Shown here piece by piece: positions 1-64,000 of a DNA stretch of 64,000 nt (position 1 is its first letter; each line of letters starts with the position of its first letter). Both the position numbers and the translations under genes were made by a program. Origin of the DNA: a virus. The stretch is from IMG/VR virus record IMGVR_UViG_3300045988_164075; one strand, given 5' to 3'. The notes below the pieces were generated by a model, which saw nothing but the letters and a program-made list of their open reading frames with translations, searched no databases and was not told the DNA's origin.

Positions 1-155
1 ATTTTGCCGTCTATAAAAGTGATTTTATAGATAATGATCGGGCAATATCGGCGAAGGCTAAGTTTTGGATCAATAACTATTTTAAAATAGATTTTGATAA
101 AGAATATGCTAACGCCGAGATAACTAAAGAAATTAAAGAATCTTTAGTATCGTAA
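1..155 (+). CDS. 3' end of an ORF inside an intron (possible homing-endonuclease C-terminus), partial
   Basis: Open frame from position 3 reads FAVYKSDF...KESLVS and ends at TAA 153-155. Intron-like RNA sequence follows directly. Confidence 0.3.
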   Translation, partial: FAVYKSDFIDNDRAISAKAKFWINNYFKIDFDKEYANAEITKEIKESLVS

Positions 156-305
156 CGCATAGGAAATGAAACTTAAATTAAGAATATAATTTTCCCACGA
201 GTGTCCGATGCCCTTAACAAATAAAGTTGTGGGGGGTGAAAACATATGCTGACCTTATAGGAAACTATAAGAAGTAAAGGATAAAAAGCCTTTACGATAA
301 CAATG
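1..305 (+). mobile_element. group I-type intron, 3' portion (5' end outside window)
   Basis: 156-305 parallels the 3' domains of the polB intron at 28346-28607 and the RNAP intron at 40586-40942: hairpin cttatagg-aaa-ctataag, hairpin taaagg-ataaaaa-cctttа-like, then gataaca...G. It ends in G at 305. Confidence 0.5.
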
Positions 306-532
306 TGAAAACAGGACGTATTTTAGCTTCTAAAAGCGATGCAATTGGGTATTTGTATCGCGATGATGAATCTAACACTATTTTAAGCTTCAATACTAAT
401 GATAAATTTGTTGAATGTGGAGCAAGACCTGCTCATCTTAGAAATAAAGATATTGTTTTAGGTAAATATCAAGAAGATGGAACAGTTGTTTATGATTGGA
501 CTCAAATTTATCCTTCGTTAAGAAATGCTTAA
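306..532 (+). CDS. downstream exon of an unidentified split gene
   Basis: Open frame continues from the intron 3' G (KTGRILASKSDAIGYLYRDD...) to TAA at 530-532. No TGA in frame. Confidence 0.4.
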
Positions 533-1046
533 AATATCATTTGATTTTGATGAAACAACTAAAAAGGTATCAAATTTAACTGTTACTAATTCGACTTCTG
601 TTACTGTTAAACGAGATACTACTGGAAAAGCTATTGTAGAAGTTACTGCAAATAAATTAATTATTTCAGATACGGCTTTAGCTTTCCTAGATGCTAATCC
701 TGAAGATAGAATATCTATCAATTATTTTCAGGAATCAAAAGAAAAAACATTTCCTGTAATTGCTAAATCTGAATACTTTACAGATAAAAAAGCAGGAAAT
801 AAATTAACAAAATCTAATACTGTGTCTTTTAGAGGAAATCAAAGGACAATATTATTAGAATATGGAACTGTTTTTGAATTACAACCATTTAAAGAACATA
901 TATTTAAACTAGCTCCTTTGAACGATAGTGATTCAGAAATAGTTTCAGAAGAATTAAAAGATGAAGAAATTGAGTTAGAAGATATTGCAAACGAAATTAT
1001 TACTAACTCTACAGTTTCTGATGAAGAAGATTCTCTTCCGTTTTAA
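525..1046 (+). CDS. acidic hypothetical protein with SSB-like C-terminal tip (EEDSLPF)
   Basis: Complete ATG-to-TAA ORF. The C-terminus SDEEDSLPF resembles the acidic D-D-D-I-P-F tail of bacterial SSB. Confidence 0.6.
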   Translation: MLKISFDFDETTKKVSNLTVTNSTSVTVKRDTTGKAIVEVTANKLIISDTALAFLDANPEDRISINYFQESKEKTFPVIAKSEYFTDKKAGNKLTKSNTVSFRGNQRTILLEYGTVFELQPFKEHIFKLAPLNDSDSEIVSEELKDEEIELEDIANEIITNSTVSDEEDSLPF

Positions 1047-1088
1047 TTAATACAGAAAAATTAATAAATTATTATAAATTAATATACT

Positions 1089-1775
1089 ATGGGAAATATG
1101 TTTGATATGGGTGCAGTTGCAACTGCACGAGTGGTAGAAAATAATCGTCTTAAATGTGGAATTCATGATGTAATATTTAAAGGGATTGAACGTGGAGAGG
1201 ACTTTGGTCCTAATGCAGTAGGTACTATTGATATTCATTTTGAAGCTGTAGACGGTTCTGGTATTTTCGATGATAAGATGTTTGAGCCAACTTCGGCTGA
1301 ACGTAAGACTACAACTGATCGTAATGGAGTTGAACGTGAACAGGCTTCTCCTGCTGAACAATTTATGGCTAAATGTAAACAACTTATTATGGCCTTGAAT
1401 CCTGAAGCTGGTGAAAAAATTGAAAAAGGAGAGGCTCAGTTTAAAGCAAGTTCGTTTGATGGTATCGTAAAACTTTTGAAAAAGATTCTTGATTCAAAAG
1501 TTGGTACGCAAACTCAAATTAAACTGCTTCCAAATAAAAATGGATACGCAAGTCTTCCTAGTTATGTAGCTAGTATTAATAGAGAGGGGATTGTTTATAT
1601 TAGTTCTAAAGTAATTGGCAAGGATTTGACTCTTTCTTCATATGAAATGTCTCGAATTCAAGCTGCTGCGACTGCAACTCCAACAAATATGACAAAATCT
1701 GATAACGTACTAAGTGATATGAAATCAGATTTTGGAGCAGCAGATGCAAATGAAGATGACGACCTTCCTTTCTAG
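1089..1775 (+). CDS. single-stranded-DNA-binding-like protein (C-terminal NEDDDLPF)
   Basis: Complete ATG-to-TAG ORF. The acidic C-terminal tip DDDLPF is the SSB partner-recruitment motif. Confidence 0.55.
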   Translation: MGNMFDMGAVATARVVENNRLKCGIHDVIFKGIERGEDFGPNAVGTIDIHFEAVDGSGIFDDKMFEPTSAERKTTTDRNGVEREQASPAEQFMAKCKQLIMALNPEAGEKIEKGEAQFKASSFDGIVKLLKKILDSKVGTQTQIKLLPNKNGYASLPSYVASINREGIVYISSKVIGKDLTLSSYEMSRIQAAATATPTNMTKSDNVLSDMKSDFGAADANEDDDLPF

Positions 1776-1791
1776 TATTTAAATATATTTA

Positions 1792-2841
1792 GTGAATTAT
1801 ACATTAGAACCGACAGTTACCAAAGAATTGATTTTATCAAAAGTGCGAGAAGAAACTCTAATGGAGCATTATTTAGGTATTCCTGTCAAAAAAGGCTTAT
1901 TTAAGTCTCCACTTAGAGTTGATTCTCGTCCAACTTGTGCTTTTTACAGAAATAAAAAAGGCACAATTATCTTTAAAGATTTTCGAGGAGATTTTTCTGG
2001 AGATTGTGTATCGGTAGTAATGTATAAATTTGGCTGCTCCTTTTACAAAGCATTACAAATAATTGCAAATGATTTTGGAATAATCTCTAGAAAAGATTTA
2101 ACCATTAATCCATCAAAAATTAAGAAATATTCTGAAACGAAGTTTGAAGATAAAGGTAATGCTATTATTCAAGTAGAGTTAAAAGATTGAAATAGATTTG
2201 AATTAGATTGGTGACAATCGTTTGGAATCTCGCAGGAAACTTTAAAGAAATTTAGAGTTTACTCGTGTAAAAATGTGTTTTTAAATGGAGAAATATTTCA
2301 CTTATATAAAGAAAACCAGCTAGTATTTGGATATTTTGGAGGAATAAAAGATGATATAGAACAATGAAGAATCTACTATCCAGGTAATAGAAAATATAAG
2401 TTTATTTCTAATTGAAAGCAAATTCAATTACAAGGTGCTAAACAACTTCCAAGAAATGGCGGAGAATATTTAGTTATTACAAAATCTCTAAAAGATGTAA
2501 TGACTATATATGAATGTAGTAATCTTCCAGCTATTGCTCCAATTTCTGAAAACTGTTTTATAACTGATTCACAATATCAACGTTTAAAAGCTAAGTTTAA
2601 GAAAATTGTTTTATTCTATGATTCGGACATTGCTGGGATTTCTAGTATGAATAAGATTAGAAAAAAATATCCAGATTTATTTATTGTATTTATTCCGAGA
2701 AAGTATCATTGTAAAGATATTTCAGATTTTTATAAAAAGTACGGATTAGATAAAACAATTAACTTAATTAATACAGCAAAACAATATATTGATGAAGAAG
2801 ACAGTATCAGAAGAAATAAAACCAAAGAGGAAACGATCTAA
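1792..2841 (+). CDS. DnaG/TOPRIM-type DNA primase
   Basis: GTG start. ORFs 1792-2190 and 2500-2841 share a frame and are joined through 5 in-frame TGA. LVITKSLKDVM and VLFYDSDIAG resemble the TOPRIM E...DxD region. The N-terminus has a Cys-containing finger-like segment. Confidence 0.6.
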
Positions 2842-3239: not shown

Positions 3240-3716
3240 ATGAAAATTATTATTCAATCTTTTGGAGATATTATAACTAATTCTAGTACTGAAACCTTTT
3301 GTATAAGTAATGGTTCAGTTAGCGACCTACAATTACTTATTGATACTATTTTAAAAGTTTATGGTATAAATAATTCATCGATTATTGTTAAAGAAATAGT
3401 TGATTATGATTCATTAAGTGATTTGTCTAGTGGCCAGGTAGAAACTCTAGCTGAAATTGTCTATGAAAATTCTGGTATTGATTCTAATACTTTTCTAGAA
3501 TATGCTAGTTTAGGCAAATGGAATCTACTTGAAAATATGCTCTCAAATGTAGGTAGTAGTCTTTTAGAAATGGCTAAAATATATAATGATACTGTACAGT
3601 ACGGTTTAATTTTTACTCGTTATACAATTGAAACTACTATACCTAATACAGATGCATTAAAACAGCAAATTGAAAATTTGTCGGATTTATTTAGTTTCGG
3701 AGAATATGAATACTAA
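3240..3716 (+). CDS. QS-x2-DIITNSS family paralog 1
   Basis: N-terminus MKIIIQSFGDIITNSSTETFC. TAA stop, no in-frame TGA. Confidence 0.75.
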   Translation: MKIIIQSFGDIITNSSTETFCISNGSVSDLQLLIDTILKVYGINNSSIIVKEIVDYDSLSDLSSGQVETLAEIVYENSGIDSNTFLEYASLGKWNLLENMLSNVGSSLLEMAKIYNDTVQYGLIFTRYTIETTIPNTDALKQQIENLSDLFSFGEYEY

Positions 3717-4218
3717 AATTTTATTTGAATTTAATATTCAATCTATAACTGATATTATTACAAATAGTTCTAGCGAATTATTTGTATTTAAAAATAGAGA
3801 GCTTGAAGATTTAGTATTAATTCTTTCTTTAATTCATCCTTGTTGGAACCTGGAATATAATGAACCAATACAGGTTAATAGAATGCGTGATGATGAATTA
3901 GTTACATATTTAGAATGGGTATATGGTGGGTCAGATTTTGATTATGAAATTAGAAATATTCCTATTACTAAGGAAAATACAAAACGTACAGGAGTTGCTA
4001 AACATTTTGGATTAAAACCAAAATTTGTTTATGAAGATTACGAAAATTGGGATCCTAATATAAATAAACTTAGTCTTAAATATCTGCCTGAAGGTTTAAG
4101 AACAATTCGAGCAATGATCCCTGATACTACCTTTGCAATGTATTCTAAAGACGATAATCCTACATGGGAATATCAAGAAAAATTTGAACGACTTGGTAAA
4201 CGTTATCATCTAGGTTAA
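3706..4218 (+). CDS. QS-x2-DIITNSS family paralog 2
   Basis: ATG at 3706 gives MNTKILFEFNIQSITDIITNSSSELFVF. It overlaps paralog 1 by 11 nt. TAA stop. Confidence 0.7.
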   Translation: MNTKILFEFNIQSITDIITNSSSELFVFKNRELEDLVLILSLIHPCWNLEYNEPIQVNRMRDDELVTYLEWVYGGSDFDYEIRNIPITKENTKRTGVAKHFGLKPKFVYEDYENWDPNINKLSLKYLPEGLRTIRAMIPDTTFAMYSKDDNPTWEYQEKFERLGKRYHLG

Positions 4219-4219
4219 A

Positions 4220-4612
4220 ATGAAAATAATTATTTTAAAAACTCAATCTTTCTCGGATATTATTACTAATAGTAGTAGTGAATTATTTGTAGTTAAAGGA
4301 GATAGATATAGCAGTGCATTTGAAGATTTTTTATATGTAGAAAATATAGGAGACCTTCAGTGGTATCTTGAACGAAAAGAAATACTCTTACCTGAAATAA
4401 GAAAATATCTTAAAAATCCACCTAAAACAATATGTGACGGGTTTGATATAGATGACTATCGAAACGCGCTACGAGAAGCAATTAAAAACAATGATTTAGA
4501 TAAGTATAAAAATTGTTCTTTTGTAGTTTTAGGGGATCATATGGATTATGATACATGGCAATCTATAAAAGATTCTTTATATCCGAATATATATTATGAA
4601 AGTTGGCATTAA
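4220..4612 (+). CDS. QS-x2-DIITNSS family paralog 3
   Basis: MKIIILKTQSFSDIITNSSSELFVV. It starts 1 nt after the previous stop. Confidence 0.75.
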   Translation: MKIIILKTQSFSDIITNSSSELFVVKGDRYSSAFEDFLYVENIGDLQWYLERKEILLPEIRKYLKNPPKTICDGFDIDDYRNALREAIKNNDLDKYKNCSFVVLGDHMDYDTWQSIKDSLYPNIYYESWH

Positions 4613-4907
4613 TATTCAGTCTTATGTTGATGTAATTACTAATTCATCAACTACTGTGTTTTGCTCTATAGAAAGTGATTTTGAGACGATAATTCAAAAT
4701 ATTGAAGATTATTTAAATTCTTTTCTTCCATTTAAAGTTAAATATCATAGATCGTGTATTATTAAAACATATTCAATTACATTTGAGGTGGAATATGGAG
4801 AAAATGAAGAACTTACTGAAAATATATGTGCACTAATTGAACAATTGCTTTCTGAGCATTTTCCGAATGGAGGATATTTTGTAACAAGTGGATATGAATA
4901 TAATTAA
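4596..4907 (+). CDS. QS-x2-DIITNSS family paralog 4
   Basis: MKVGINIQSYVDVITNSSTTVFCS. It overlaps the previous gene by 17 nt. Confidence 0.75.
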   Translation: MKVGINIQSYVDVITNSSTTVFCSIESDFETIIQNIEDYLNSFLPFKVKYHRSCIIKTYSITFEVEYGENEELTENICALIEQLLSEHFPNGGYFVTSGYEYN

Positions 4908-5190
4908 TATACAAAGTATTACTGATATAGTTACAAATAGCAGTACAGAGGTATTTATTCGTGTAAAGGAGACTGCTATTAACACAGTTAAAGAGCTTAT
5001 TAATGATCTTCTTAAAATAAGCGGATCTACACTTCAAGCAGATGATTTATTTACAATTGAAATATTATATGATGATAGTTCAGATTTAATGGTTACTCCA
5101 AAACAAGATACAACAGAGTGTATTGAAGCGGCTGTAATTCTTTCTTCTTTAAGAAGTTTATTTAATTATGAAGTACATGAAGATCGATAA
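4888..5190 (+). CDS. QS-x2-DIITNSS family paralog 5
   Basis: MDMNIINIQSITDIVTNSSTEVFI. It overlaps the previous gene. Confidence 0.75.
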   Translation: MDMNIINIQSITDIVTNSSTEVFIRVKETAINTVKELINDLLKISGSTLQADDLFTIEILYDDSSDLMVTPKQDTTECIEAAVILSSLRSLFNYEVHEDR

Positions 5191-5545
5191 ATTAATTCCA
5201 ATTCAAAGCTATTCAGATATTATAACTAATAGTTCATCTGAATTATTTTGTACTATAACTTCTGAAAAACATCTTAAAGAAATATATCAGATATTAGATA
5301 GTATCGTTGGATATAGGCAAGAACCAGAAATAGATGTTTGTATTAATTACTGTTCTAAATCTAACATCGAAGAATCAGAACTAAAAAGTCAGTTTTATAA
5401 AGAATTGCCAGATAAATGGATTGAAGTAGATTATCCTTATTATAAGAATTCCGTAAAAGAATTTTATATTTCTGGTTTTGAAGGAATTTTAAATAAGAAA
5501 ATAGGTAAAGCAAATTATAAAATTAGATATTATTTAGGAGATTAA
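5168..5545 (+). CDS. QS-x2-DIITNSS family paralog 6
   Basis: MKYMKIDKLIPIQSYSDIITNSSSELFCT. It overlaps the previous gene and ends 3 nt before the radical SAM start. Confidence 0.75.
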   Translation: MKYMKIDKLIPIQSYSDIITNSSSELFCTITSEKHLKEIYQILDSIVGYRQEPEIDVCINYCSKSNIEESELKSQFYKELPDKWIEVDYPYYKNSVKEFYISGFEGILNKKIGKANYKIRYYLGD

Positions 5546-5548
5546 ATT

Positions 5549-5839
5549 ATGAAAGATTGGACAAGTTGGGGAATTAAAAGAAGAGTATTTCCAGATAAAA
5601 ATTATAATGCAATATGGTATAATCTCAAAACACTCCGATTAGGAACAGGACAGGCTAGCGAACTTGATTATCCTGAGTTTTATGATATTGGAATTAATAC
5701 TAAGTGTAATCTTAATTGTCCAATGTGTTATGTTAGTGCTAAAAGTTCGGGAGTAAATTATACCGATATTTGTGAAAAGGCTAAATTCTTTTTTGGACAA
5801 ATGACAGGAAATGAAAGGCCATTTCAAGTGGCAATTGGT
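5549..5839 (+). CDS. radical SAM enzyme, exon 1
   Basis: CNLNCPMCYV is the CxxxCxxC Fe-S/SAM motif. The standard ORF dies at TAA 5843-5845 just after QVAIG. The exon ends in U. Confidence 0.8.
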
Positions 5840-5872
5840 GAATAATAATTTTAGTATTAATTTATAAGTATA

Positions 5873-5904
5873 TTTGGTTGTAGTGTAAATACTGCCTATT
5901 TTTG
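5873..5904 (+). promoter_or_regulatory. Bacteroidota-type promoter (-33 TTTG / -7 TAnnTTTG) inside the intron
   Basis: TTTG at 5873-5876, a 20-nt spacer, then TATTTTTG at 5897-5904, upstream of the endonuclease ATG at 5929. Confidence 0.5.
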
Positions 5905-5928
5905 TATTATAATAAAAATAAATATATT

Positions 5929-7062
5929 ATGATACAATGTGGAATTTACAGGATCCTCAATACTATTAATAATAAGTTTTATATAGGATCGTCAGTAAAC
6001 TTAAGAAAAAGGCTTTATGAACATCGAAGATTACTTCGTTTAGGTAAACATGAGAATTATCATCTACAAAACGCGTTTACTAAATACGGAGAAGAAAATT
6101 TCAAGTTTGAAATTATAGAAGTTTTAAAAGAAGTACCAAAAGATATTAGAGTATTAAGAGATTTAGAAACAGATTATATCCAAAAGTTTAAATCTTATGA
6201 TCAGTCTATTGGATATAATGTAATTAAAGGAGGAATAGGTACAATTAATACTCCTTGTTCAGAAGAAAAACGACAAAAAATTTCAGAAAGTAATAAAGGT
6301 AAGTCTGCGTGAAACAAAAATGTTCCTATGACTGAAGAACAAAAACAATTACTGAAAAAAATTCAAACTAGCGCCCGAGGGAAATCTATTGACGTTTATA
6401 CTTTAGAAGGAGAATTTATTGAAACTATTGGATCGATTAGAGAAGCTAACCGTAAATATTGTTGTGGACGAAATACAATCAAAAATTGCTGCGAAGGTTT
6501 AACATTACCTAAAAAACATATTTTTGTTTATCATGGAGATTCGTTAGATATTATAGCCAAAAATAGAGTTACAATATCAGATGAAGATAAACGATTAAAT
6601 ATTGAGAAAAGTAGAGAATGCCGTGGATATACAGTTGATGTATACAATATGTCTGGAGAATTGGTAGATGTTGTAAAGGGGCTTGAAGCTGCATCAGAAA
6701 AATACGGAATGATTTCGCATAATATTTCTAAACAGATGCGAGAAAAAATAAATGGGAAAGGTCCATATACGTTTAGGCATCATAATGATTTTTCAGTTTA
6801 TGTATATTCTATATATAACAATAATGATTTACTTTATCGGTCTTTTTCTAAAAAATGTATTCGCGAATATTTAAGCAAAAATAAAATTCGTCTTGGACAA
6901 GCATTTAGTAGATTAATTTCTGAATCTTTAACTTCTATTTCAAAATATACTTATCAAATTAAATACGAAATCGCCCATACTGGAAGTAATTCTGGTATTG
7001 AATCGCGCCAATCCGAAGAAATAAATTCGGAGGTCTCTAATGAGGCTAACGGTGAAACCTAA
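5929..7062 (+). CDS. GIY-YIG homing endonuclease (I-TevI-like)
   Basis: GIYRILNTINNKFYIGSSVNLRKRLYEHRR is the GIY-YIG motif. ORFs 5902-6312 and 6328-7062 are one frame joined through TGA 6310-6312. The C-terminal half is repeat-like. Confidence 0.85.
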
Positions 7063-7231
7063 GTCAGAAGTGATATGGTAACACCGTGCTAACTTTAAAG
7101 GTAATATGTTAAAGTAGTGTAACGAGTATGGATGAACCTTCTAACGAAGAATATAAAACTTTGAAGGGCGCGACATCCTTTATAGGATGAAAATGTACTC
7201 TGTGGTAATAGAAATATTACTGTCGCCAACG

Positions 7232-7843
7232 TCAACAGGCGAACCAAGTTTGCACGAAAGCTTCTGTGAATTTCTTGAAACGTTGTTTTACTTAGGAATT
7301 GTTCCAAACTATACAACGAACGGTATTACTATAGCAGAAGACTCTGATCTTAGTACTAAAATACTTGACTATACCTCTCGTTTTGTTGGAGGAGTTGCTG
7401 TTTCTGCTAATGAGTGGTCAGAACATATTGGTAAAGCATGGAGGAGAGCTATATATAAATTAGATACTTTTGGGAATACAAATATTAATATTCACTATAT
7501 TATTAAAGATATTGAAAGTGTTAATAAATTCTTAGATATTTATAAAGAATTTAAATATACAGTATTATACTTTGTGTTACTACCTCTTATGCCATCTGGT
7601 AGATCAAAAGAAAAGTATAGTGAAGATGCATTTGAATATTTACTTCAACAAGATTTAGATTGGGGTAAAATTGCATTTGGTGCACATTTTTATAATTCAT
7701 TACTCAATCAAAATAAAATTAAATGCTATTTATATCCTCCTGAGAGTCTATCTAAAAATCTTCTTTTAGATAGTACTATTAAAGTAACACCATCGTCATT
7801 TAACTTAAATCCTATAAAAGAAATTAAATATGAATACATGTAA
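7232..7843 (+). CDS. radical SAM enzyme, exon 2
   Basis: STGEPSLHESF...VPNYTTNGITI matches the GEP and TNG motifs of the radical SAM core. No Cys-rich SPASM tail. TAA stop. Confidence 0.75.
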   Translation, partial: STGEPSLHESFCEFLETLFYLGIVPNYTTNGITIAEDSDLSTKILDYTSRFVGGVAVSANEWSEHIGKAWRRAIYKLDTFGNTNINIHYIIKDIESVNKFLDIYKEFKYTVLYFVLLPLMPSGRSKEKYSEDAFEYLLQQDLDWGKIAFGAHFYNSLLNQNKIKCYLYPPESLSKNLLLDSTIKVTPSSFNLNPIKEIKYEYM

Positions 7844-8048
7844 AGTTACATTTGAAAATTCAAATGGGCAACAAGTTATTGTAATACTTTCTTTAAATAA
7901 AGAAAAGAACGAACTTGATATGAAACTTGGATTTTCTCCAAAAGTTGATCCTCATACTGATCTCGGATTAGCTGGACAATTTGCAGATATTTTCTGTAAA
8001 GCTCTTGGAGCTAATAATGAATCTACTCCATCTGAAAAACAACAATAA
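7830..8048 (+). CDS. small hypothetical protein, last gene of the operon
   Basis: ATG overlaps the radical SAM 3' end by 14 nt. TAA stop, then a terminator hairpin. Confidence 0.55.
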   Translation: MNTCKVTFENSNGQQVIVILSLNKEKNELDMKLGFSPKVDPHTDLGLAGQFADIFCKALGANNESTPSEKQQ

Positions 8049-8061
8049 TATATTATACTTA

Positions 8062-8096
8062 AGTCCGCGTTAGACCTTTTTAACGCGGACTATTTA
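8062..8096 (+). terminator. terminator-like hairpin
   Basis: agtccgcgtta-gaccttt-ttaacgcggact, an 11-bp perfect stem. The trailing T run is weak. Confidence 0.5.
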
Positions 8097-8108
8097 TAAT
8101 CTTTTAAT

Positions 8109-9404
8109 ATGAATAATCAATCTGTTCAAAAACCATTAAATTTTATTTCAGATACACTTGCTTCTTATTTATCACAAATCACAGAATGATTTGATGATGA
8201 AATAGCTACTGAATTACTAACTATTAAAACATTTTCATCTATTTCGGAAATGTGAGGTAAAGCAGAATTAGCTAGTAGGATTACCGATTATGCACGTTAT
8301 CTAGATTTTGATCCTAATGCATTTATGTTAAGTTTTTTACCTAAAGGTAAAAATTTAGTTTATTCGAATGGCAATTTAACTAAAAAGAACTGAATATCTG
8401 GGAAAATATCTAGAGTTTTACATAAAATACTTATTAAGCAATATACAGATCATAGTTATGAGGTATTTAATAATCACTTAAAAGCAATTGTATTAGGTGC
8501 AGATTATAAATGAAATATTGTAACAGGAAAAAATATTGCATATTGGTATGATGAAACTCATTATAATAGATCAGGAGGAGGTACACTAAGTAACAGTTGT
8601 ATGCGTCACATAGGTAGTCAAGATTGGTTTGAAATATATACTAGTAATCCATATTGTTCTATGTTGATTTTAACTAAATACAATCGATTAGTTGGAAGAG
8701 CTCTACTATGAACTATAGACAATAATGTTTATATGGATAGAGTTTATTATTCTGCAGATGAAATTTATTCTAAATTTATTCAATATGCCAAAAAGAATAA
8801 ATGAAGAATAAGATATGATAATAGTTTACTTAGCGATGAAGAAGATTGTTTTTTTAAATATTTAGATGATGGGAAAACATGGCAATATGAGTATTCTGAA
8901 TTGAAAATACCCGTAAAATCAGATTATGATTGATTTCCATACTTAGATTCTTTTCGTTATTTTTATCGTTTAGAAGGTCATTCTTATTTAAGTAATGTTT
9001 ATAATGATAATTTAAAAGATTGTATTAGGTTTTTATCAGATTCTGATGGGAGTTATACTTCTTATAACACTTGTTGTTGCTGCGGAACTCATATATTATC
9101 TGATGAAGGTATGTGATCAGATTATTTAGATGATTATTTGTGTGAAAATTGTGCTATTTATAGTGAATATCAAGATTCTTATATTGCAATAGATACTGCA
9201 GTAAAAGTTTTTTATGATAGATCTTTTGACACATACGACTATGTTGATCAAGACTGTGTTGATGCAGCGTTTGATAGTTTTGCAAATATAGGTGACGATT
9301 GGTTTTTTATTGATAATGAAGAAATGATAAAAATTGATGATAATTGGTATTGGATAGACGAATGTGAATGTGATGAAAACGGAGAATATAAACCTATAGA
9401 ATAA
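8109..9404 (+). CDS. Cys-rich hypothetical protein (431 aa with TGA=Trp)
   Basis: ATG at 8109 is in frame with ORF 9138-9404. Many in-frame TGA occur in Trp-like contexts (TEWFDDE, SEMWGK, YKWNIV, LLWTID). It has a CCCCG...CENC cluster. Confidence 0.7.
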
Positions 9405-11256: not shown

Positions 11257-11288
11257 TTTGTATTTTAATATTATCAATAGTATCTTTG
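11257..11288 (+). promoter_or_regulatory. Bacteroidota-type promoter
   Basis: TTTG at 11257-11260, a 20-nt spacer, then TATCTTTG at 11281-11288. Confidence 0.55.
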
Positions 11289-54400: not shown

Positions 54401-56501
54401 CTCCTGATGCTAGTGCGGCTTCGGCTACTTTATCATAAGGTCTCCCTTCTTGATCATATACTTGAAGTTTTTTTAATGTTTCATCAGATACTTTTAAACC
54501 TTCTGATGACATTAACTTATCTACTCTATCAATGTAATCAAGTAATTGATCATATACAACATCGTTTTGACTTTCTTCCTCCTCTGCATTATGAAACTTA
54601 ATTTGAGTTTCATCTCCAGTGTTTACTAACTCATATGTTTTTCCTGATAAGTTTACATCGCCTAATTTGCCCTTTTTATGTAAACGAGCTAATTCATTTC
54701 TTATATCATCAGTACGTCCTTGACGTATTAAATAAACAATTTCTTGAGCAGTTTGATTATCAGATGTAGTAGCTAAATTACTACTAATTCCGTGTAATCT
54801 ATTTTGTCATTTTCCATGTAATTGAAATACGGGTCCTCCAATTGCACCTCCAAAGAAAGACATAGCATAACGTTGAGCAGCATCGCTAGCTGATCAACCA
54901 AAATCTAAACGTCTTTCACTTTCAGTCATATCAATGCCTAAAGCATCTCCTGCAGCAAACAAAGCTTTGGTTAAATCAGAAGTTACTTCTTCCATTACCT
55001 CTTCTGTTGCTTCATTTAATGCAGAATCAACTAATTCATTACTACTATACTTTGCAAATTGATTTTGAAAAAATTGCTTTCCTCTAACGATAAAATTGGC
55101 AGCTTGTTTAGGAGTTGTAACAGATCATTTTGTTAAGTTTTCTTTTACCTCTTGCGCTAAATCTTTAACTGCTTTTTTAGCTGGATTTTGGTCTAAATAC
55201 GTTCCTTTGAATAAGAAATTTCTAAAGTAATCCATATTCATCAATCCATACATTCCTCCCATAACACTTAACATACCTAAACCTGCAACAGCATCAGTTG
55301 CCCCAGCATTTTTAAATTCTGAATAAGCTTGTTGAGAAGATGTACCTGCCATATAAGCAAGTGCTAGATTTCTACCTAATTTTTGTACTCGAACTGATTC
55401 TGGAGCTCCAGTTAAAATTCTTGGTATTTGTCCAATAACTCTTTGTTGGAAAAGTTGTAAAGATGTATCTTCAATCATCTTTCCAAGATTTTCTCAACTA
55501 AACATATTTTGTTGAGAATAATCAGAAACGTTAGAATCAAACCTAGCTGCATAACCTTCTATTTGATTTAATTTTTTAATAAAATCTGAATCATTATCTC
55601 CTCCAATAATTCCGTTAATACTTTTCATTAAAGTAGGAATTAATTGCGCTAATTCAGTTCCTGCAGATAAAGCTCCATACACTGATCCAACATATGGTAT
55701 TAACATAGGACCTACCTTAAATACTAGTTTTGATATAGTTCCTCCTAAACTTTTATCTAAACCATCAGAATCAAAAAAATCATATTTGTTTCACGCAGAT
55801 CCGTCTACTGTTAAAGTATCTTCAATACCTAAAACTTGCTTACCATATATTTCTCGATTACCTAATGTTTCATAATAAGTATCCCCATCTTCATTAAATT
55901 TGAGATCTCCTTTTTTATGCTGTAACGTTCGTCCATCAACTACATGTGTTCCATCTTCATCTCATGTAGCTAATACTAATGTAGGTCTATTTAAAGCTTT
56001 TCAAATTCCACCTTTTTCATTTGGAGTTCAATCTTCAAACTTCTGAGTTTCTCAATTAAATACTTTATTCTGTTGAGCTATTTCTCTAAAACTCATTGTT
56101 TGATTACCTCTACCAAATACATATTCTAATCCAGCAGAACGTCTTTCAGGATTTGCAACCTTTTGTATTGAAGGCAAATTATCTTTTACTTTACTTCCTG
56201 CAGGAGCAAAATAATCGAATGGATCATATTCATAAGTTTCTAAGAGTTTATTTTCAAACTTATTATTTGCATAATCATTATAGACAGTTAAGGCACTCTG
56301 ATAGAAACGATTAAATTTATTTTCATCAAATTGTCCATTCTCATTTTTAAAAGCATCAATTACTTCAGGAATATTTTTATAATATTCTCTAGTATTTATA
56401 CTTGTATTATCTGGAGTAATATCATTATTAGCAAAATCCTGTAGAGTCATATTAGGTTGGAATAGCAGTGTTGCAAACCAATCATTCTTCTTATTCTCCA
56501 T
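48453..56501 (-). CDS. giant virion-block protein (2682 aa) with an embedded SF1-helicase-like ATPase region
   Basis: Eleven track ORFs from 56501 down to 48453 share one frame and are joined only through TGA. Motifs are FGGAGTGKTTAV (Walker A, near 52170-52200), ILFIDEISHF, YAFGDKKQ and AVQGSEFDYVVID. TAA at 48453-48455. Confidence 0.75.
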
Positions 56502-56514: not shown

Positions 56515-58335
56515 TTAAAAATTTGTTTTTATTGCATTTTGATTACGTTTAGCAATTGCTTGATTTAATATATCTCTATAGTTAGATGTTGGAACTAATT
56601 CATTATTTGATTGATATGTCGCTATTTTTGTATCTACGATAGGCATAAATATAGAAGATTTATACATACTTCACCTACTAGACTTAGCTTCATTTGCTGG
56701 TTTTTTAGATTTAGTGGAGAAACCCTCTCCATAATTGATTTGCGTATCATAATAATCGGTAATTTCTTTACCTTGTTCTGTAGGTAAATGGCTAATTCAT
56801 TTCGAATCTTCATCTAAAGGCATTACTCTACTATTTGCATACCCAGTCATTATAATAAATGGTTTAACTGCGTTTGTATTAAATACAAAATTTCCTGTTT
56901 GTGAATCATAAGTTACATCTAAACCTAGAGTTTTCGCCTTTTCAAATTTTTCAACATTGGTAATATCAGGGAAATCATTTAAAAATTTTTGAAATTCTTC
57001 AAATCGTTCTTGAGATTCAAAATCAGGTTTATATGATCCATCTTGCTCAATAGTATATGGAAGTAGTACTCTATTAACCTGACTCGTACCGTCTCACAAT
57101 ACTTTATTAATATCTATATCTCTCACTTTTTGATCTCCAAAATATATAGATGATTTATCTACAATTTTCCCGATATCTGCTTTATCAAGTAATTGTTGTA
57201 AATTGGTTTGAGGTACTATATTGCCATTTTTATCTACAGGAGCACCATATGATTGAGCATAAGCACTAATTGCTATTTTTGAATCTGCTGGACTTAGTAA
57301 CATTTGACGACCTTCAATAATTCTTCCATTTGCAAGAGCTTCCAATTGACTAAGCTCTGTTTCATCTGGTTTTTTAGAACTACCACTACCACTACTTAAA
57401 CTATCGGTCATTTCTTTTTGGAATGCTAATTCTCTAGAATGTGTAGTATGTTCAGTTAACGCTAATCCAAGTAAATTTAATACTTCTGTTTTTGAATTTG
57501 GATTTCCGCCTTCTGCCGCAGTTTTAACTCTTAAAGCATGTAACATGTTACTAGGAAGTGTAGTATATAGATACTCTAATGCTCTTTCTGTACCTTGATC
57601 TTTATTTGTTATTTTATAATATCCATCAGGTCCTCCCATTAATAAACTTCTAAAACCATCTTCGATTTGTTCCTTGTTTTTTAAGGTATATCCTTCAATC
57701 GTTTTAGTTCCAAAATCTTTTATAACACCTTTCAGATAATTAACAATACTTTCCATTCCAACTGAATTAGAAAGATTATTTAATATATCTTGTCGATATG
57801 CTAATTCAGGTTGATGTTCTCTTAAACTTAAGAGCTGTGAATTAGTTAAAGCTTGGTATTTATCTTTATTAGAATAATATTCTGAAGGATCTACTGTTGA
57901 AATTCCATCATTTTCAGAATATACATACATTCTACCTTTATCATCAACAGCTGCTTCTGCTCATGATCTTTCTTTGGATAGCTGTTCTGTAGCAGCATCA
58001 TATAATTGTTTATTAAATTTAGTTCTATTTGCTAATGAACGTAGTTTAATAATATCTGAAACATTATAACTTTGATTAGTCGCCCCAAATAAGTTAGCAG
58101 AAAAATTTTTACTTTTATCTAATACAGCATTTGCTTGACGCAAAAATGTATCTACATCTGTTGGAATTCCATTTTCTGATATAATTTCTAATGCCTCTTT
58201 TGTAAATGTATCATCATTTGACAAGGTATTATTTGAAGTAGCAGTAGATATATTTCCTTGAACATTCTCATATGCATTATTAGGAATAAAGGGGGTATAG
58301 TATATACCCCCTGCATTATATTTTCTTATTTTCAT
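56515..58335 (-). CDS. virion-block protein (606 aa)
   Basis: ORFs 57961-58335 and 57094-57930 share a frame through TGA. Hand translation continues to TAA 56515-56517. The N-terminus is MKIRKYNAGG. Confidence 0.7.
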
Positions 58336-61300
58336 GAGATGTTGCTTTTATAAATAATCTAACTATATTATTATTAAGTGATTTAACTGCTTCATTAGCA
58401 GCCTTATTCTGTTGTATTCATATTTCTTCGTGTGCAGGTCTGTGATAACGATTATATGAACTTACTTTTCCTCCTTTTCTTTGAGATAAAACGTTAGTAT
58501 ATGTTTCCGCATTAAATTGTGGACGCTTAAACAATGAATTATAGTAAGGAATTAATGATTTAACCTTTAAATTATAAAGTTGATTTTGGATACTATTATA
58601 TTCTTCAGGTTTATATTCACTTAATCAGCTTTCAAAGGAATAATTATCTCGTATGTCTTTGTTAGCATCATCTTTGTATCAGGTATCAAACTGGTCTCTA
58701 TAAGGCTTCATCAAATCTCTCATTTGTCCGCTTAACTCATGTTCTAATTTTCCTTGTAATAAAGTTGAATTAATAGCATTACGTTTTTCTTCATTTAATG
58801 CATTTTTAGCTCTTTTTTCCATTAATCAATTATTAAAGGATGTAAAATCATTAGCTAATTTGGAAGCTTTATTTTGTGCTAACAGCATATTAACATTAGC
58901 AATTATTTGTCTATTTTGATTAGCAACATCTGCTCTTACTTGAGCATAACGTCTTTTTAAATCATTATTTCTGTTTAAATAATCGCTAAATAATTCAGAA
59001 GTTTTTAATCTTCCTTCCAATCGAGTTTGATTTGCTTGAGATTGACCTTGTTGTTCTAAAGCATTTGCTAATACAGCATCAGAAGTGACAGGTTTATAGT
59101 TTTCTTCTCTAACTGCTTTATTTTCATAAGCAATAGGTACTCCATAAGTATTAAAACTATCGTAAATTTCTTGAGGTGCACTTAATGTAGCATTGTATCC
59201 AGATCTAATTCCCTTTTCTATTTCATCATGGAATTTACGATTATAAACTCTTGATCCTATTAATCCTGTTAAACTATATAAACTATCCTGATCAATTTTT
59301 GGAAGTTTTGCATTTATTGTTTGAATTCCTCGTCCTAATTTTGAAACAAAATCAAATAATCCTCCAGGAGCAAATTTCTGGATTTTACCTCCACTTTTAT
59401 GTGAACGTAAATATTGTATTAATTCCTTCATATCATCAGTTTCGTATTCTATACCGCGAGGTGTATTTACAAAATATCTATAAGTTAAATTGCCTTCACT
59501 GTCTAGACCATCCTGTATTTTAGTTGGAACTATTTGATTTTTTATAGCTTTTTCTGTTGCTTTTTTTGATAAACCAATAGGTGTAAAGGATTGTTCTCTT
59601 CCAGCATAAGGTGAATGAAACAATAAAAATCCATTATTTAATGTTGTATTATTTCGCACCTGTCCATATACAGGAACTTGTTCTCCAGTCCATCCACTTT
59701 CTTTAGATCCAATAACAAATCTTGTTCCGAACTTGTCGGGGTTATCTATTTGATAACGAGCAATTGCTCTATTTCGCATAGTTTGCATCATACGTGGTCA
59801 AAAGCCTTTCGCAGTATATTGTGCTTCTCTAATCTCTCTTGGAGCTGCTTTGAAACGGTTAATAAACTTTTTACCTCTTTGTTTAGCAGAATCTGTTATT
59901 TTACTTACATTTAGTTTTGCTAATTCTGATTTACTAATTAATTCTTTACTTGCTTTATCATAATCAACTTTTCCATTCTCTCCAACATATTTTTCAGCTA
60001 ATGCGGCATCATTTTTTAGTTTTTCATCAACTAAAGCTTGTTTTCTTGTTTCTATATTATTAACTGGCGTTACCTTATTTTCTTTTGGAAGTTTTTTAGT
60101 TGCTAAACGTTTATCAAATGCTAAACGTTTTAATCCTATCACAGATTGTAAACCAGTTGCAACATTTCTAAGATCATTTATAGTTCATTCTTTTCCATCT
60201 TCTGTTAAATTAGATAATGATTGTGCAGCATTTACAAGTCCTGCCGCCGCAAAAGTGCTTCCGATTAATTTAGCAGAATTTTTAAGGACTTTAATAGTTT
60301 TAGCTGTTTTGCCAGCAATTCCTACGCCTGGAATTAAAGTAATTGCATCTAATCCTAAGCTACCCAATGCTCTTCCAGCATCACCTCAATCAAGACCATC
60401 ACGCTTTACGTCGCTAACAAACTGTGAAATTGTTGAACCAAATCCTAATCCTGCAGCAACTGGATTTCCTCCTGTTGGAATTGAAGCAATCAAAGCACTT
60501 AAATCTCCAGCAATAGCTCCTAATTGTCATTTATCTGCAGGTGTTAGTTCTCCTTCTTTAAAGATATTTTTAACAGATGCTCCTTGTGTAATATCTGATA
60601 GATTATTAATAACAGTTTGCTTAGGTTCAGAGTTTACGCCTTTAGTTGTAATTTCTTTAAATACATTTCCAAATTGATATTTTGGAATTTTACCTCCAGT
60701 TTTATATTGTTGTTGAACGTAATTTGTATTAGCCTGTTGTAAGGCAGTACGTCCTTTATATTCATTAGAACTCCCTTTTGGACCTTCAAATAACATATTT
60801 ATATTAGCTCTAGTAGCTGGAACTCTTCTATCCTTTATAGCACTAAATAAATCTAAGTTTTTAACTTGTTTATAATCATTCCCAACTTGTATATAAATAG
60901 CTCCGTCATCACCCCTATAAATTCCATAATTAATCTTATCGTTTTGATCTATAAGTTCTCCGTAACGAGCTACTTTTAAATTATTAGAAACTTTTTGTCA
61001 ATCAAAACGATTAAACTTTGCAGGATTTCCTTGATTAATTGCAGAACGCAATTTATACGGAATTTGTGATGCATCAGTATATTCAAAGTAATGTGATCCA
61101 TCGGTATTTTCTCTATTAGGATCATAAGCAATATAATGAATTTTTTGAGGGATACCTGATAAATGTCTAGGATCATTAGGATTTATATATGCCTGTAAAC
61201 TTGCTCCGTTTGGTAAATCATATGCGTTACTTAATGTTGTTGCATATAAAGATTGCCCTGGATTTAGTTTAACATTTCGAGTAGCAGTTCACAGTGTAGG

Positions 61301-62458
61301 ATGATAATGTTGTTCTCTATTAAATTCACTTCATGTAACATTATTTGGTCAGTATTGTACTCCTGCTGAATTAATTGCATCAAAATCAAACTTATTTCAG
61401 GCATTTCTAAATGGCTGAAAAATAGTTCCGATGTTATCTACATTTCGTTCTACTTCTTCTGGAGAATATAAAAATCCATTGTATCCAAATCAATTTTGAT
61501 ATTTAGTTCCAGCTAATGGAGACGATTCTGTAAATACTGCCTTATCATACCCATTAAACAAGTCTTGTCAATTATCTATTCTTATTCTTCCGTTAATATT
61601 TGAAAATTTTGCATCTTTTCAAGTATCCTTCTTTAATCCTAGAGCCTGTCGAATTTTCTGAGACTCAATTTCTTCTTGTTGTGAAGAAGTAAGTATTTGT
61701 TCATTTGATTGATTCTGAAGAATACGAAGATCATTTAATACTTTTCAGTCATTTTCAGTTAATGTTCCAGATTGAATTCTATCTCTAATTGCAGCTAATT
61801 CTCCACTATATTTATTATAATAATCTCTAACCGCATTAGTATTAATTCCAGATACATTATAAGATTCGTCTCCTTTATCTCCTAATTCAAAATAATTAAT
61901 AAGATTATTAATATCACTAATTATAGCTGTATTAGATGGACGATTAGAATATATCTTTTTTCCATTTTTGTCAGTAATATAGTCTATATATCTATCTGTA
62001 AAATTAATATTTGTTTTTTCTAAAGGTTGTGCTTTAGGTGCTTCTGGAGCAATATACCGAAAGTTTCGCAATGAATCTAAAGCTCTAGCAGCGTTATCTA
62101 CTTTTGAACCAAATATAGAATCAAATCACATTCCAGCTTTAGAACGATCGCGATTCATTCGACGTTCCTGTCTGTTATTCAAACCTTGTAATTGAACATT
62201 TGGACTAACCTCATTATTTAATGAACTGAATGTAACGTCTTCACCTCGATTTAAAGCATCAATAACTCCTTTAAAATATGGCTGTTGAGAAGAATTTAAG
62301 TTAGATTTGCCAAAATTTAATAATTGATCTATAAATCCTTCGTTATTTGCATCATACGAAGTTCCATCAATTATCAAGTGACCTCTCTTAGGGGGCATTT
62401 GATTACTTGCTACTGCCATTGGCCCCCCATTATCAAATTTTCTTATTACTTGTGACAT
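58316..62458 (-). CDS. virion-block protein (1380 aa), Gly-rich hydrophobic central region (possible ejection or tape-measure-like protein)
   Basis: Six track ORFs (62126-62458 ... 58826-59791) share one frame. The tail was hand-translated codon by codon to TAA 58316-58318. It has Gly/Ala/Ile-rich stretches such as GLGFGSTIS and GSLGLDAITLIPGVGIAGK. Confidence 0.75.
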
Positions 62459-62526: not shown

Positions 62527-62805
62527 TTACTTCTTACAACCACCTTTACGTTTCATTTTACCACCTTTTTTAAATACAGGTTCTCCTTGTGGTGCGCCAA
62601 CTTCTCCTGCTCCATTTTGAGCTTGTTGTACAATCATTATAAACCCTTGGCAAACTCCCATTGCAGCTTGGCAATCTTGAGTTTGTAAAGCTTGTACTGC
62701 AAGTTGATATAGTTCCATTAAAGGATCTTGTACAGTTTGTTCTGGTGCTGGTTGTACTTGTCCAGCAGGCATTTGGCCACCTGATTGAAATTTTTTTATA
62801 AGCAT
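62527..62805 (-). CDS. small Gln/Ala-rich protein with a basic C-terminus
   Basis: Complete ATG-to-TAA ORF of 92 aa with its own promoter and terminator. The N-terminus is MLIKKFQSGG and the C-terminus is KKGGKMKRKGGCKK. Confidence 0.75.
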   Translation of the reverse strand: MLIKKFQSGGQMPAGQVQPAPEQTVQDPLMELYQLAVQALQTQDCQAAMGVCQGFIMIVQQAQNGAGEVGAPQGEPVFKKGGKMKRKGGCKK

Positions 62806-62887
62806 ACTTAAAATTTTTAATTTATATTGTTATTTACTAAATATCTCTAACCATTTGTCAATTGCATCTATTCTGATATTTGATTTT

Positions 62888-62918
62888 CAAAATTAGTAAT
62901 ATTTTCAGTAAATACAAA
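62888..62918 (-). promoter_or_regulatory. Bacteroidota-type promoter (minus strand)
   Basis: On the minus strand, TTTG (62918-62915), a 19-nt spacer, then TAATTTTG (62895-62888). This lies about 80 nt upstream of ATG 62805. Confidence 0.5.
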
Positions 62919-63057
62919 GTAAAAATAGTTTAATTCTCGATTTTTTGAAAGTTAACTATTTTTTATTATATTTGCACTATAACCTAAAAATAATAATCAG
63001 AATGTATTTCATTCTCTACGGAGATGCTACATTAATAATATAAAACAAATAGGTTAG

Positions 63058-63092
63058 TCGAAAAGCCGAGTATTTTTACTCGGCTTTTTTCA
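63058..63092 (-). terminator. terminator hairpin overlapping the stop codon
   Basis: agccgagta-ttttt-tactcggct with A/T runs on both sides. Confidence 0.55.
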
Positions 63093-63663
63093 TTTCTACA
63101 TAACTAGGATCGTTATTATCTTGTATTTTTAAATATTTAAAGACTTGTTTCCCAAGACGCTTGTAGTCTGAATCTTTTTTAGATTTATATGCTCGCCGAG
63201 CGCCTTTAACTAATATTCTAGTATTTGGTCTACTAAAAATACGTTCTCCTCCGAGTAATTCAAATTGAGAAGTTCCATCAGATCCAATTACATGCATTGT
63301 AGACAGACTTTCTTCTCAGTCTTCATCATCAAAGTCAACATCATCTCCAGGTTTTATCCCTGAGTTTTGATTTACTTCTAAAACGTATTTAACATTATCT
63401 TCACTTATAAATTCTTCTGAAAACGGAATCCCCTGTTTAACAGATATTACTTCTTCGTCTTCATCGATAAAAACAATATCTAAAGGTATTTCTGTATCTT
63501 TCATCCAAAAATCTACATGCTGCGGATTATCATATACAAATAACATTCCTTCATCATCGTCCATTTCAATAACATCTTGTAAACCTTTTACTTTCTCTTC
63601 TTCGGTTTCAGCTACTAGAACTTCATATTCTTTATCTTCTATTTCGATTGTTATTTGTTTCAT
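63076..63663 (-). CDS. DUF192-like domain protein with a C-terminal extension (195 aa)
   Basis: ORFs 63316-63663 and 63076-63297 share a frame through TGA. The pattern VAETEEEKVKGLQ...MLFVY...FWMKDTEIPLDIVFID is DUF192-like. Confidence 0.6.
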
Positions 63664-64000
63664 TTAAAATAGATTTTGTTTTATCTTCAGTATCTTTTAT
63701 CAAAGCTATAGATAATAATTTGCCAGCTTTGATCGTTGCTTCTTCAGTTCCCTCTTTATATAATTGTTCGAGTTGTTCTGTTAGCTCTTTATTTAGTATT
63801 AATTCACCGCCTTCTATTTCTGCGTGTTGTATAATATTACCATCAGAATATGAAATGACAGGAATACCTTTTTTAGTAATACATCCTTTTAAATTTGAGT
63901 TAGTATTTTCTAAATTATTTTTTCGTGCATGTAACGAACCTTCAACAATTATGTTTAGTTTACCTCCAGTTTTATATATTGGTAAATTCGTTGTTAAATT
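63632..64000 (-). CDS. 3' part of an upstream virion-block gene (partial)
   Basis: The minus-strand frame reads ...YKTGGKLNIIVEGSLHARKNN...AEIEGGELILNKELTEQL...SILNETNNNRNRR and ends at TAA 63632-63634. Confidence 0.5.
   Translation of the reverse strand, partial: NLTTNLPIYKTGGKLNIIVEGSLHARKNNLENTNSNLKGCITKKGIPVISYSDGNIIQHAEIEGGELILNKELTEQLEQLYKEGTEEATIKAGKLLSIALIKDTEDKTKSILNETNNNRNRR

Follow-up and report, generated by a model that had tools for sequence, protein, structure and literature searches.

UGA read as tryptophan in a common Zeta-group crAss-like phage of the human gut, with no UGA-reading tRNA found in a closed genome tiling

The 64,000-nucleotide stretch of viral DNA analysed here (IMG/VR record IMGVR_UViG_3300045988_164075), called the window in the following, makes up about 40% of a phage genome of ~162 kb, as judged from same-species contigs. 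Its GC content is 28.1%, and its genes lie on the plus strand up to ~33.5 kb and on the minus strand beyond. In this DNA the reading of TGA (UGA in the mRNA) as tryptophan is strongly supported at the codon level by sequence comparison. On sequence identity, the window is assigned to the species of the complete metagenome-assembled genome (cMAG) OLWB01000021, a Zeta-group crAss-like phage (clade zeta_13; proposed Echekviridae) of the human gut, and it is highly probable that this identity and the recoding hold together. The phage is lytic, intron-rich and very common in the human gut. It needs UGA as tryptophan in most of its genes, including those for replication, and none of the tRNAs in the closed tiling of its genome can read UGA.

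TGA as a sense codon for tryptophan

When TGA is read as sense, the longest stop-to-stop open reading frame (ORF) of the window grows from 441 amino acids (aa) under the standard code to 2691 aa, and the coding strand gains in coding density, from 0.58 to 0.91. Reading TAG as sense gave no gain in ORF length in the window. The comparison of translation tables 4 and 11, which a preliminary description of this DNA had proposed, thus shows a clear gain in both ORF length and density. Fifty-five genes tile the window with TAA and TAG as sole stops (52 end in TAA, three in TAG and none in TGA), in agreement with the gene ends given in that description. A total of 150 in-frame TGA codons is spread over 30 genes, in frames running up to 2682 aa. 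The replication and nucleotide-metabolism genes that had been said to need several read-throughs do need them, with four TGA codons in the primase, three and eight in the two parts of NrdD, two in NrdG, four each in the helicase and the ligase, and one, three and one in the pieces of the family-B DNA polymerase (PolB). The minus strand had been described as carrying five ORFs of 606 to about 3032 aa; it has six large ones instead (1481, 812, 1901, 2682, 606 and 1380 aa), none of about 3032 aa. A standard-code annotation loses ~40% of the coding sequence of the window and shatters all large genes.

To identify the encoded residue, TGA was masked as X, all proteins of the window were compared by tblastn with 80 related IMG/VR loci, and the subject codon opposite each site was read. 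In relatives of 60-90% identity, the opposite codon is TGG in 294 cases, TGA in 37, TAT in 23 and TTT in 13; in relatives below 60% identity it is TGG in 354, TTT in 82, TAT in 64 and TTC in 53. In relatives of at least 90% identity, the counts are 138 TGA and 6 TGG, and independent assemblies that are 97-99% identical keep the same TGAs in this ratio. The same picture emerges for single genes: the sites of the 3' part of nrdD face TGG 404 times and TGA 41 times, followed by TAT, TTT and TTC, those of the NrdG-like gene face 70 TGG and 7 TGA, and those of the primase face 48 TGG. In the 1481-aa late gene, whose homologs were aligned down to 25% identity, the 24 TGA columns hold W in 215 of 408 homolog cells, then F, Y and L, and several of these columns are invariant W. 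Because some of these homologs are themselves TGA-recoded, the codon-level tblastn result is regarded as the primary evidence.

Protein motifs can be compared with solved structures as well. The TGA at 30517-30519, proposed earlier as the tryptophan of a thioredoxin WCNPC active site, stands in the string GCA GAA TGA TGT AAC CCT TGT, and the masked site falls on the WCGPC tryptophan of all top solved thioredoxins, which bears the proposal out. The TGA sites of NrdD fall on W, Y or F, or on variable positions, of solved structures. The suggested check of TGA sites against Trp columns therefore comes out in favour of tryptophan, with TGG dominating in relatives. The motif GNK-TGA-SGKD, which had been read as the P-loop of a deoxynucleoside monophosphate (dNMP) kinase, is present, but its TGA is not in a conserved Trp column, the homolog in one relative (L140; L-numbers denote related IMG/VR loci or contigs compared with the window) having Asn there; the third TGA of the same gene corresponds to a conserved W.

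Phages with code 25, in which TGA encodes glycine, occur in human microbiomes (the Absconditabacteria/Gracilibacteria phages; Borges et al., bioRxiv 2021.08.26.457843). A reading as glycine or another residue is nevertheless extremely improbable for the window, where the relatives have overwhelmingly TGG and then Phe and Tyr codons, and where the thioredoxin active-site position is an invariant Trp. Gly codons are negligible opposite the TGA sites both in the codon reading of relatives and in the late-gene alignment, which excludes code 25. Formally, the TGAs could also be true stops (pseudogenes, an assembly artefact, rare programmed read-through or selenocysteine). The chance of this is vanishingly small: the 150 in-frame sites lie in 30 genes with frames as long as 2682 aa, the sites are conserved across the independent assemblies mentioned above, the phage is found on hundreds of contigs of 50-200 kb, and a requirement for an element like the selenocysteine insertion sequence (SECIS) is implausible for 150 sites.

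Identity of the phage and previous description of its code

In blastn, IMG/VR contig 3300045988_154970 matches the window at 98-99.6% identity and is in turn 99.1% identical to OLWB01000021 over 11.7 kb. A search with the 3' part of NrdD retrieved many relatives, several of them contigs with 97-99.6% identity to the window. Same-species assemblies measure 161-164.7 kb, among them OLWB01000021.1 with 162,190 bp. The genome was tiled by walking outward from the window via related loci, encoding contigs and one metagenome scan. The tiling is a mosaic of same-species strains of at least 97% identity, and it closes into a circle, both frontiers overlapping at 99.1-99.5% identity. In same-species scaffolds of 161-163 kb, the gene immediately to the right of the window matches Pfam crAss_MUZ (muzzle). 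Weak matches to P22_portal and CrAss_Ring_2 were also found. One protein of the phage turns up in 1266 index blocks of the collection, and 489 of these blocks have contigs of 50-200 kb. A megablast of the segment 33.6-58.4 kb against GenBank phages gave no match, and a tblastn search with the helicase gave only relatives at 40% identity or less and no near-identical annotated GenBank phage.

The supplementary data of Yutin et al. (2021, Nat Commun 12:1044; PMC7886860) list OLWB01000021 as "TGA|w", zeta and zeta_13, with 162,190 bp, nine tRNAs and no suppressor (Sup) tRNA. Given the near-identity of the window to this genome, the recoding seen here correctly retraces what had been published on that genome: TGA-to-Trp recoding is already known for exactly this species. 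The preliminary description was thus right that stop-codon recoding had been reported in crAss-like phages, and the report extends to the same species (PMC7886860). The recoding itself adds nothing new biologically; what is worth knowing is how it is distributed over the genome and that its decoder is missing.

Uneven recoding across genes and modules

The window has 208 Trp codons, 150 TGA and 58 TGG. TGA had been described as decoded as tryptophan across the whole window. The assignment to tryptophan stands; its extension to every gene does not, as 30 of the 55 genes contain TGA (mostly near-exclusively), 17 use TGG only and 8 have no Trp codon. The split between TGA and TGG is non-random, with a heterogeneity of 139 against a mean of 46 and a maximum of 80 in 20,000 permutations.

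Modules of the whole genome differ likewise. The forward block opens with ~18 kb (about -33 to -15 kb relative to the window start) that hold about 20 tRNA genes and can still be read in the standard code; TGA has a share of 0.09 among the Trp codons there, and one 451-aa ORF of this early block has 12 TGG and no TGA. The replication and nucleotide-metabolism blocks, including window 1-33.5 kb, have shares of 0.51-0.56, split gene by gene. The giant virion, muzzle, tail-fibre, portal and packaging blocks, including window 33.6-64 kb, reach 0.71-1.00. Within the virion block lies a TGA-free island of seven consecutive TGG-using genes beside the putative capsid gene (L146 231-8314; ~+75 to +83.5 kb), flanked by tail, muzzle and packaging genes with 80-100% TGA. 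The avoidance of TGA by these capsid-side genes, which are probably the highest expressed, would fit an imperfect, competitive decoding. Avoidance of TGA in both this island and the 18-kb early block is part of what makes the phage worth knowing.

Relatives at 75% NrdD identity or less have their replication block in the standard code, and the distant relative L140 has only its late genes recoded. The lineage of the window has extended recoding beyond most described cases.

Host and promoters

The preliminary description had pointed to a Bacteroidota host with the standard code on the basis of three promoter-like sites. All three exist, as two-box promoter-like sites of the Bacteroidota type:

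5873-5904, plus strand, with the boxes TTTG ... TAnnTTTG; the GIY-YIG ORF follows after 24 nt
11257-11288, plus strand; the TGA-free gene 11349-11876 follows after 60 nt
62888-62918, minus strand; the TGA-free gene 62527-62805 follows after 82 nt

Over the whole window, the count of two-box motifs is at chance (8 observed vs 5.3 +/- 2.4 expected). This count was replaced by an intergenic, strand-aware test over the window and the same-species upstream region, in which TAnnTTTG occurs 26 times on the sense and 13 times on the antisense strand (12.4 +/- 3.2 in shuffles) and the two-box motif 6 times on the sense strand vs 0.4 expected. No enrichment of TATAAT or TTGACA was found in the same test. 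A Shine-Dalgarno (SD) core precedes 4 of 55 genes (7%; background 11%). With the same scoring, Bacteroides phage crAss001 gives 18-23%, which is about its background, and Clostridioides difficile phage phiCD119, of similar GC, gives 44-46% vs a background of 14%. The bimodal codon use, the lack of SD sites and the enriched TAnnTTTG together favour a standard-code host of the Bacteroidota type. The proposed host is thus plausible on these three grounds, the raw motif count giving it no support, and Bacteroidota is probably the host phylum, being the most likely one from sequence features. Bacteroidota use the standard genetic code.

If the host natively read UGA as Trp (code 4), the phage would merely mirror it and no switch would be needed. 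Such a host would go with the low GC (28%), the lack of a suppressor tRNA in the phage genome and the fact that TGA is never a stop. It is very unlikely all the same. A code-4 host imposes no constraint of the kind seen in the strongly bimodal TGA use and the nearly TGA-free early block of 18 kb; TGA use exceeds the permutation maximum in heterogeneity, with module shares from 0.09 to 1.00; the relatives at 75% NrdD identity or less are standard-code and L140 recodes late genes only; and the promoter and SD features fit Bacteroidota. We know of no code-4 lineage among abundant human-gut bacteria.

Search for a UGA decoder

Neither ARAGORN nor Rfam (E <= 0.1) detects a tRNA in the window, as had been noted before. 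In the same-species tiling, ARAGORN finds about 20 tRNAs; the tRNA block comprises Leu(UAA), Pro, Met, Gln, two Glu, two Ser, Ile, Asn, Gly, Thr, Asp, Ala, Leu(UAG), Arg(UCU) and Cys. Four modes of detection were used: ARAGORN with default settings, the Rfam tRNA model, ARAGORN with introns of up to 2.5 kb, and a relaxed custom cloverleaf scan. By these four modes, no tRNA(UCA) and no tRNA-Trp are present in the closed ~162 kb same-species tiling, and no tRNA(UCA) or tRNA(CCA) split by an intron of up to 2.5 kb was found. A phage-supplied tRNA(UCA), which the preliminary description had named beside release-factor manipulation as implied by such a host, was found neither in the window nor in the tiling, and the table of Yutin et al. 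agrees. The relaxed scan gave only marginal matches (6/7 acceptor pairs, 4/5 T-stem pairs, non-canonical T-loops), one of which is an antisense tRNA-Asp. Domain searches of the window and the early block revealed no release factor (RF1, RF2), no tryptophanyl-tRNA synthetase (TrpRS) and no deaminase or tRNA-editing domain.

Two odd tRNA-like genes were considered as cryptic suppressors and rejected, as their anticodon loops cannot read UGA. One (L139 9452-9524; also in L135 and L138) scores 45 bits with Rfam and has an encoded CCA end and a 6-nt loop, AUUUUA, to which ARAGORN assigns no anticodon ("tRNA-???"); it may be a Lys-type variant. The other is a D-armless gene of 58 nt (L134 2284-2341, L138 11804-11861, L139 11995-12052; Rfam 41 bits), which derives from a tRNA-Ala(UGC) still complete in strain L136; its loop now reads UAC.

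The absence of a detected decoder is a gap already recognised in the literature. Recoding and suppressor tRNAs agree imperfectly in the survey of Yutin et al. (2021; PMC7886860), a tRNA(UCA) is detectable in only ~35% of code-4 phage genomes (Borges et al., bioRxiv 2021.08.26.457843), and four of five opal polB Zeta phages have no detected suppressor tRNA (PMC12386605). A phage suppressor may exist and escape detection, being highly divergent, split, permuted, interrupted by a very long intron or strain-specific. It would act in the classical way, by early expression, charging by host TrpRS and out-competing release factor 2 (RF2). Undetected suppressors were suggested both by Yutin et al. (PMC7886860) and by Borges et al. 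(bioRxiv 2021.08.26.457843). In relatives with ~61% protein identity (L127, L132), the forward block includes a canonical tRNA(UCA) of 72 nt, and the odd tRNA-like genes described above show that unusual forms are present. An intron-split tRNA is known from one strain of the same phage: in L134 (IMGVR_UViG_3300029745_000005; ~7877-8755, ~17.6 kb upstream of the window start), a 789-bp insert encoding an HNH endonuclease splits tRNA-Leu(UAG) at position 37, and other strains have this tRNA in one piece (84 nt). The tRNA content also varies among strains, from the 9 listed for OLWB01000021 to about 20 found by ARAGORN elsewhere. On the other side stand the negative outcome of all four modes over the closed tiling and the syntenic slot of the tRNA(UCA) of L127 and L132, which holds no tRNA in the species of the window. 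Moreover, tRNAscan on the complete OLWB01000021 lists no Sup and no Trp tRNA (Yutin et al. 2021; PMC7886860), and use by host TrpRS, EF-Tu and the ribosome requires a fairly canonical tRNA. At the corresponding place (L088 1570-1880) there is a noncoding stretch of ~300 nt, apparently GC-richer than its flanks, which has no Rfam match and may represent a structured RNA or what is left of an intron.

Possible mechanism of UGA decoding

Infection would begin from standard-code genes, and decoding of UGA as Trp would then be switched on, in competition with host RF2. Our leading guess, a tentative one, would have the host Trp-tRNA(CCA) read UGA once the phage has either neutralised RF2 or altered the tRNA; an escaped suppressor ranks nearly as likely. 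It is more doubtful that zeta_13 decodes its ~320 in-frame UGA codons as Trp with no encoded suppressor or tRNA-Trp at all, which would imply a mechanism new to phages. If this were true, the host tRNA-Trp(CCA) might be reprogrammed, for example by editing or modification of its wobble base as in kinetoplastid mitochondria; alternatively, host RF2 might be neutralised directly, so that a near-cognate Trp-tRNA reads UGA efficiently. The responsible factor would then be among the unannotated standard-code early genes. Being abundant and fully tiled, this genome is a good test case for the missing-decoder problem.

Several points weigh against this picture of a standard-code host with a switched decoding. 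The evidence for a host-tRNA or RF2 mechanism is of a negative kind. The tiling covers the window's own contig for its 64 kb and takes the remainder from same-species contigs, and given this mosaic and the strain-variable tRNA content, a strain-specific suppressor could have escaped. As a possible sign of competition with RF2, the nucleotide after TGA (+4) was compared and shows just a weak bias (T 15% vs 23% overall, p ~ 0.02), and TGG codons share a similar +4 preference for A. The TGA-free capsid-side island misfits a simple switch in which late genes are recoded. The giant ORFs have no family match, so that their roles (RNA polymerase, tail) are inferred from position only. As to the host, OLWB01000021 has a CRISPR match to the Firmicute Intestinibacter bartlettii, which was queried by its authors, and its sister genomes match Chlorobi (Yutin et al. 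2021; PMC7886860); for related opal-recoding polB Zeta phages, iPHoP predicts Holdemanella and Faecalibacillus (PMC12386605).

Comparison with known recoding systems

OLWB01000021 is the closest system, being of the same species (98-99% DNA identity via the bridging contig), with ~162 kb, "TGA|w", an intron-split PolB and no suppressor listed. Nothing essential separates it from the phage of the window; strains vary in the introns present and in the number of tRNAs. The phages Lera/ct1yV3 and c815351 (proposed Echekviridae; PMC12386605) resemble it in size (160-180 kb), in the use of TGA as Trp and in their many homing endonucleases, and in this group, too, the tRNA block stands at the head of a forward replication block, with the virion block in reverse orientation. 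However, Lera has a tRNA-Sup(TCA) and recodes ~18% of its ORFs, mostly structural ones (PMC12386605), whereas in the window 30 of 55 genes are recoded, including those of replication, the capsid-side island of the phage is not, and no Sup tRNA was found. The predicted hosts of the Lera-type phages also differ (Parabacteroides, or Holdemanella and Faecalibacillus; PMC12386605).

The code-4 phages Jade and Agate (Borges et al., bioRxiv 2021.08.26.457843; Nat Microbiol 2022) share standard-code early genes and TGA-recoded later genes. In Jade, a "code-change module" of Sup tRNA, TrpRS and RF1 precedes the lysis genes; nothing comparable was found here, and the recoding in the window phage, unlike that of these phages, is not focused on lysis genes.

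Cellular code 4 needs a tRNA-Trp(UCA) and the loss of RF2, and it applies to all genes alike. The code of Mycoplasma and Spiroplasma is similar in that UGA is Trp and that TAA and TAG are the only stops; it is uniform across genes, whereas here the use of TGA is bimodal between genes and no tRNA-Trp(UCA) was found.

Gene content of the window

The forward-strand genes comprise replication and nucleotide-metabolism functions, with TGA-using and TGG-only genes side by side:

1861-2841, plus strand, Toprim primase (Pfam Toprim_2; 4 TGA, 1 TGG)
3240-5845, plus strand, TGA-free, TGG-only stretch made up of six small tandem paralogs plus the 5' exon of the radical-SAM gene
3240-5545, plus strand, the six tandem paralogous ORFs, 98-170 aa, with the N-terminal motif IQSxxDIITNSSxELF, all TGA-free
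5549-5845 and 7187-7843, plus strand, exons of the radical-SAM gene, TGG-only, split by a mobile insert
9406-10170, plus strand, dATP/dGTP diphosphohydrolase-like gene, TGG-only
13243-14130, plus strand, 5' part of nrdD (ATP-cone and NRDD N-terminus by Pfam; 3 TGA)
15493-16698, plus strand, 3' part of nrdD (Pfam NRDD, E = 1.5e-55; 8 TGA, 0 TGG)
16691-17155, plus strand, NrdG-like activase (weak Pfam Fer4_12 match; 2 TGA)
17387-17893, plus strand, dUTPase, TGG-only
17893-19299, plus strand, superfamily 1 (SF1; Dda/RecD-like) helicase (Pfam AAA_30, UvrD_C_2; tblastn to Dda-like helicases; 4 TGA)
19305-20465, plus strand, ATP-dependent DNA ligase (Pfam DNA_ligase_A_M; 4 TGA)
26891-27136, 27458-28357 and 29499-30176, plus strand, pieces of the family-B DNA polymerase (1, 3 and 1 TGA)
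30487-30741, plus strand, thioredoxin (Pfam Thioredoxin, E = 1.6e-15) with the TGA at 30517-30519 in W-C-x-P-C
30757-32714, plus strand, ThyX (Thy1) and a 333-aa ORF of no assigned role, TGA-free, 3 TGG each
32714-33433, plus strand, dNMP kinase (Pfam DNMK, E = 3e-17; 3 in-frame TGA)

No Pfam family was found for any of the six tandem paralogs or for the 299-aa piece of PolB; the translations of the PolB pieces show the motifs FDIEV and DVTSLYPS. Genes of RNA-repair type are also present and encode a fragment of an RNA ligase, a PNKP phosphatase domain and the HAD domain found in "Swiss Army Knife" RNA repair proteins (window 22842-23330 and 24910-25290, and a composite upstream ORF at ~-16.7 kb). 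Judged from their domains, they may serve in tRNA-repair counter-defence.

The minus strand is dominated by giant genes:

33628-38073, minus strand, 1481-aa virion-block protein, 24 TGA, 2 TGG (homologs carry PDDEXK_1)
38066-40504, minus strand, 812-aa ORF, 5 TGA, 0 TGG, no family match
40931-48463, minus strand, split giant gene (42758-48463, 1901 aa, 8 TGA, and 40931-41839, 302 aa)
48453-56501, minus strand, 2682-aa ORF, 21 TGA, 1 TGG, with an internal AAA_30/AAA_19 ATPase region
56515-62458, minus strand, 606-aa ORF (4 TGA) and 1380-aa ORF (18 TGA, 1 TGG)

The AAA_30/AAA_19 call comes from precomputed Pfam results on the identical gene in ENA scaffolds, where the 606-aa and 1380-aa ORFs are predicted as the same genes. 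Against PHROGs and Pfam, the giant ORFs gave no match apart from a LAGLIDADG insert.

Introns and mobile inserts

Several genes are interrupted by inserts:

5840-7231, plus strand, mobile insert in the radical-SAM gene, with a GIY-YIG/NUMOD3 endonuclease ORF at 5929-7062 (Pfam GIY-YIG)
14121-15451, plus strand, mobile insert (intron) in nrdD, with an HNH/HTH endonuclease ORF at 14214-15380, 3 TGA (Pfam HNH and HTH)
27109-27363, plus strand, ORF-less group I intron between PolB pieces (Rfam RF00028 Intron_gpI, 98 bits)
28768-29400, plus strand, Cys-rich, zinc-finger-like putative HNH ORF of a second PolB insert
41899-42636, minus strand, LAGLIDADG endonuclease ORF in the insert of the split giant gene, 5 TGA (PHROG, E = 2.4e-18)

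By blastn presence and absence, the nrdD insert is missing from the near-identical strain L001 and the radical-SAM insert from strains L073 and L085. In L008 and L009, an additional insert of ~1055 bp occupies a second nrdD site that is empty in the window (position 15756), and the segment at 20197-20454 has 257 bp here vs 1480 bp in some strains. These strain-variable inserts look like actively mobile introns in such sequence comparisons.

The PolB-insert ORF at 28768-29400 has no Pfam match. The split of PolB, with TGA in the pieces, gives the same picture as in OLWB01000021, where PolB is split by introns and TGA occurs in both the PolB-coding and the intron ORFs (Yutin et al. 2021, Fig. 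7c; PMC7886860). On the minus strand, the LAGLIDADG insert breaks the giant gene right after ...MEGSDYD. Zeta RNA polymerase genes are reported to be broken within the DxDxD motif (Yutin et al. 2021; PMC7886860), which the break recalls by analogy, and the gene is only a candidate RNA polymerase.

Outside the window, Rfam finds one group I intron upstream (L088 8931-9154) and seven more in the late half of the genome. Six of these, ORF-less and scoring 53-94 bits, lie within 2.5 kb of the putative capsid gene (L146 2138-4647; ~+79 to +82 kb), and the seventh is at L152 3329-3558. The intron density of the putative capsid gene appears extreme from these matches, in line with the description of Zeta major capsid protein genes by Yutin et al.

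In both the radical-SAM and the nrdD insert, TAnnTTTG stands ~25 nt before the start of the homing-endonuclease ORF (window 5873-5904 and ~14181-14188), which suggests that these ORFs may be transcribed independently.

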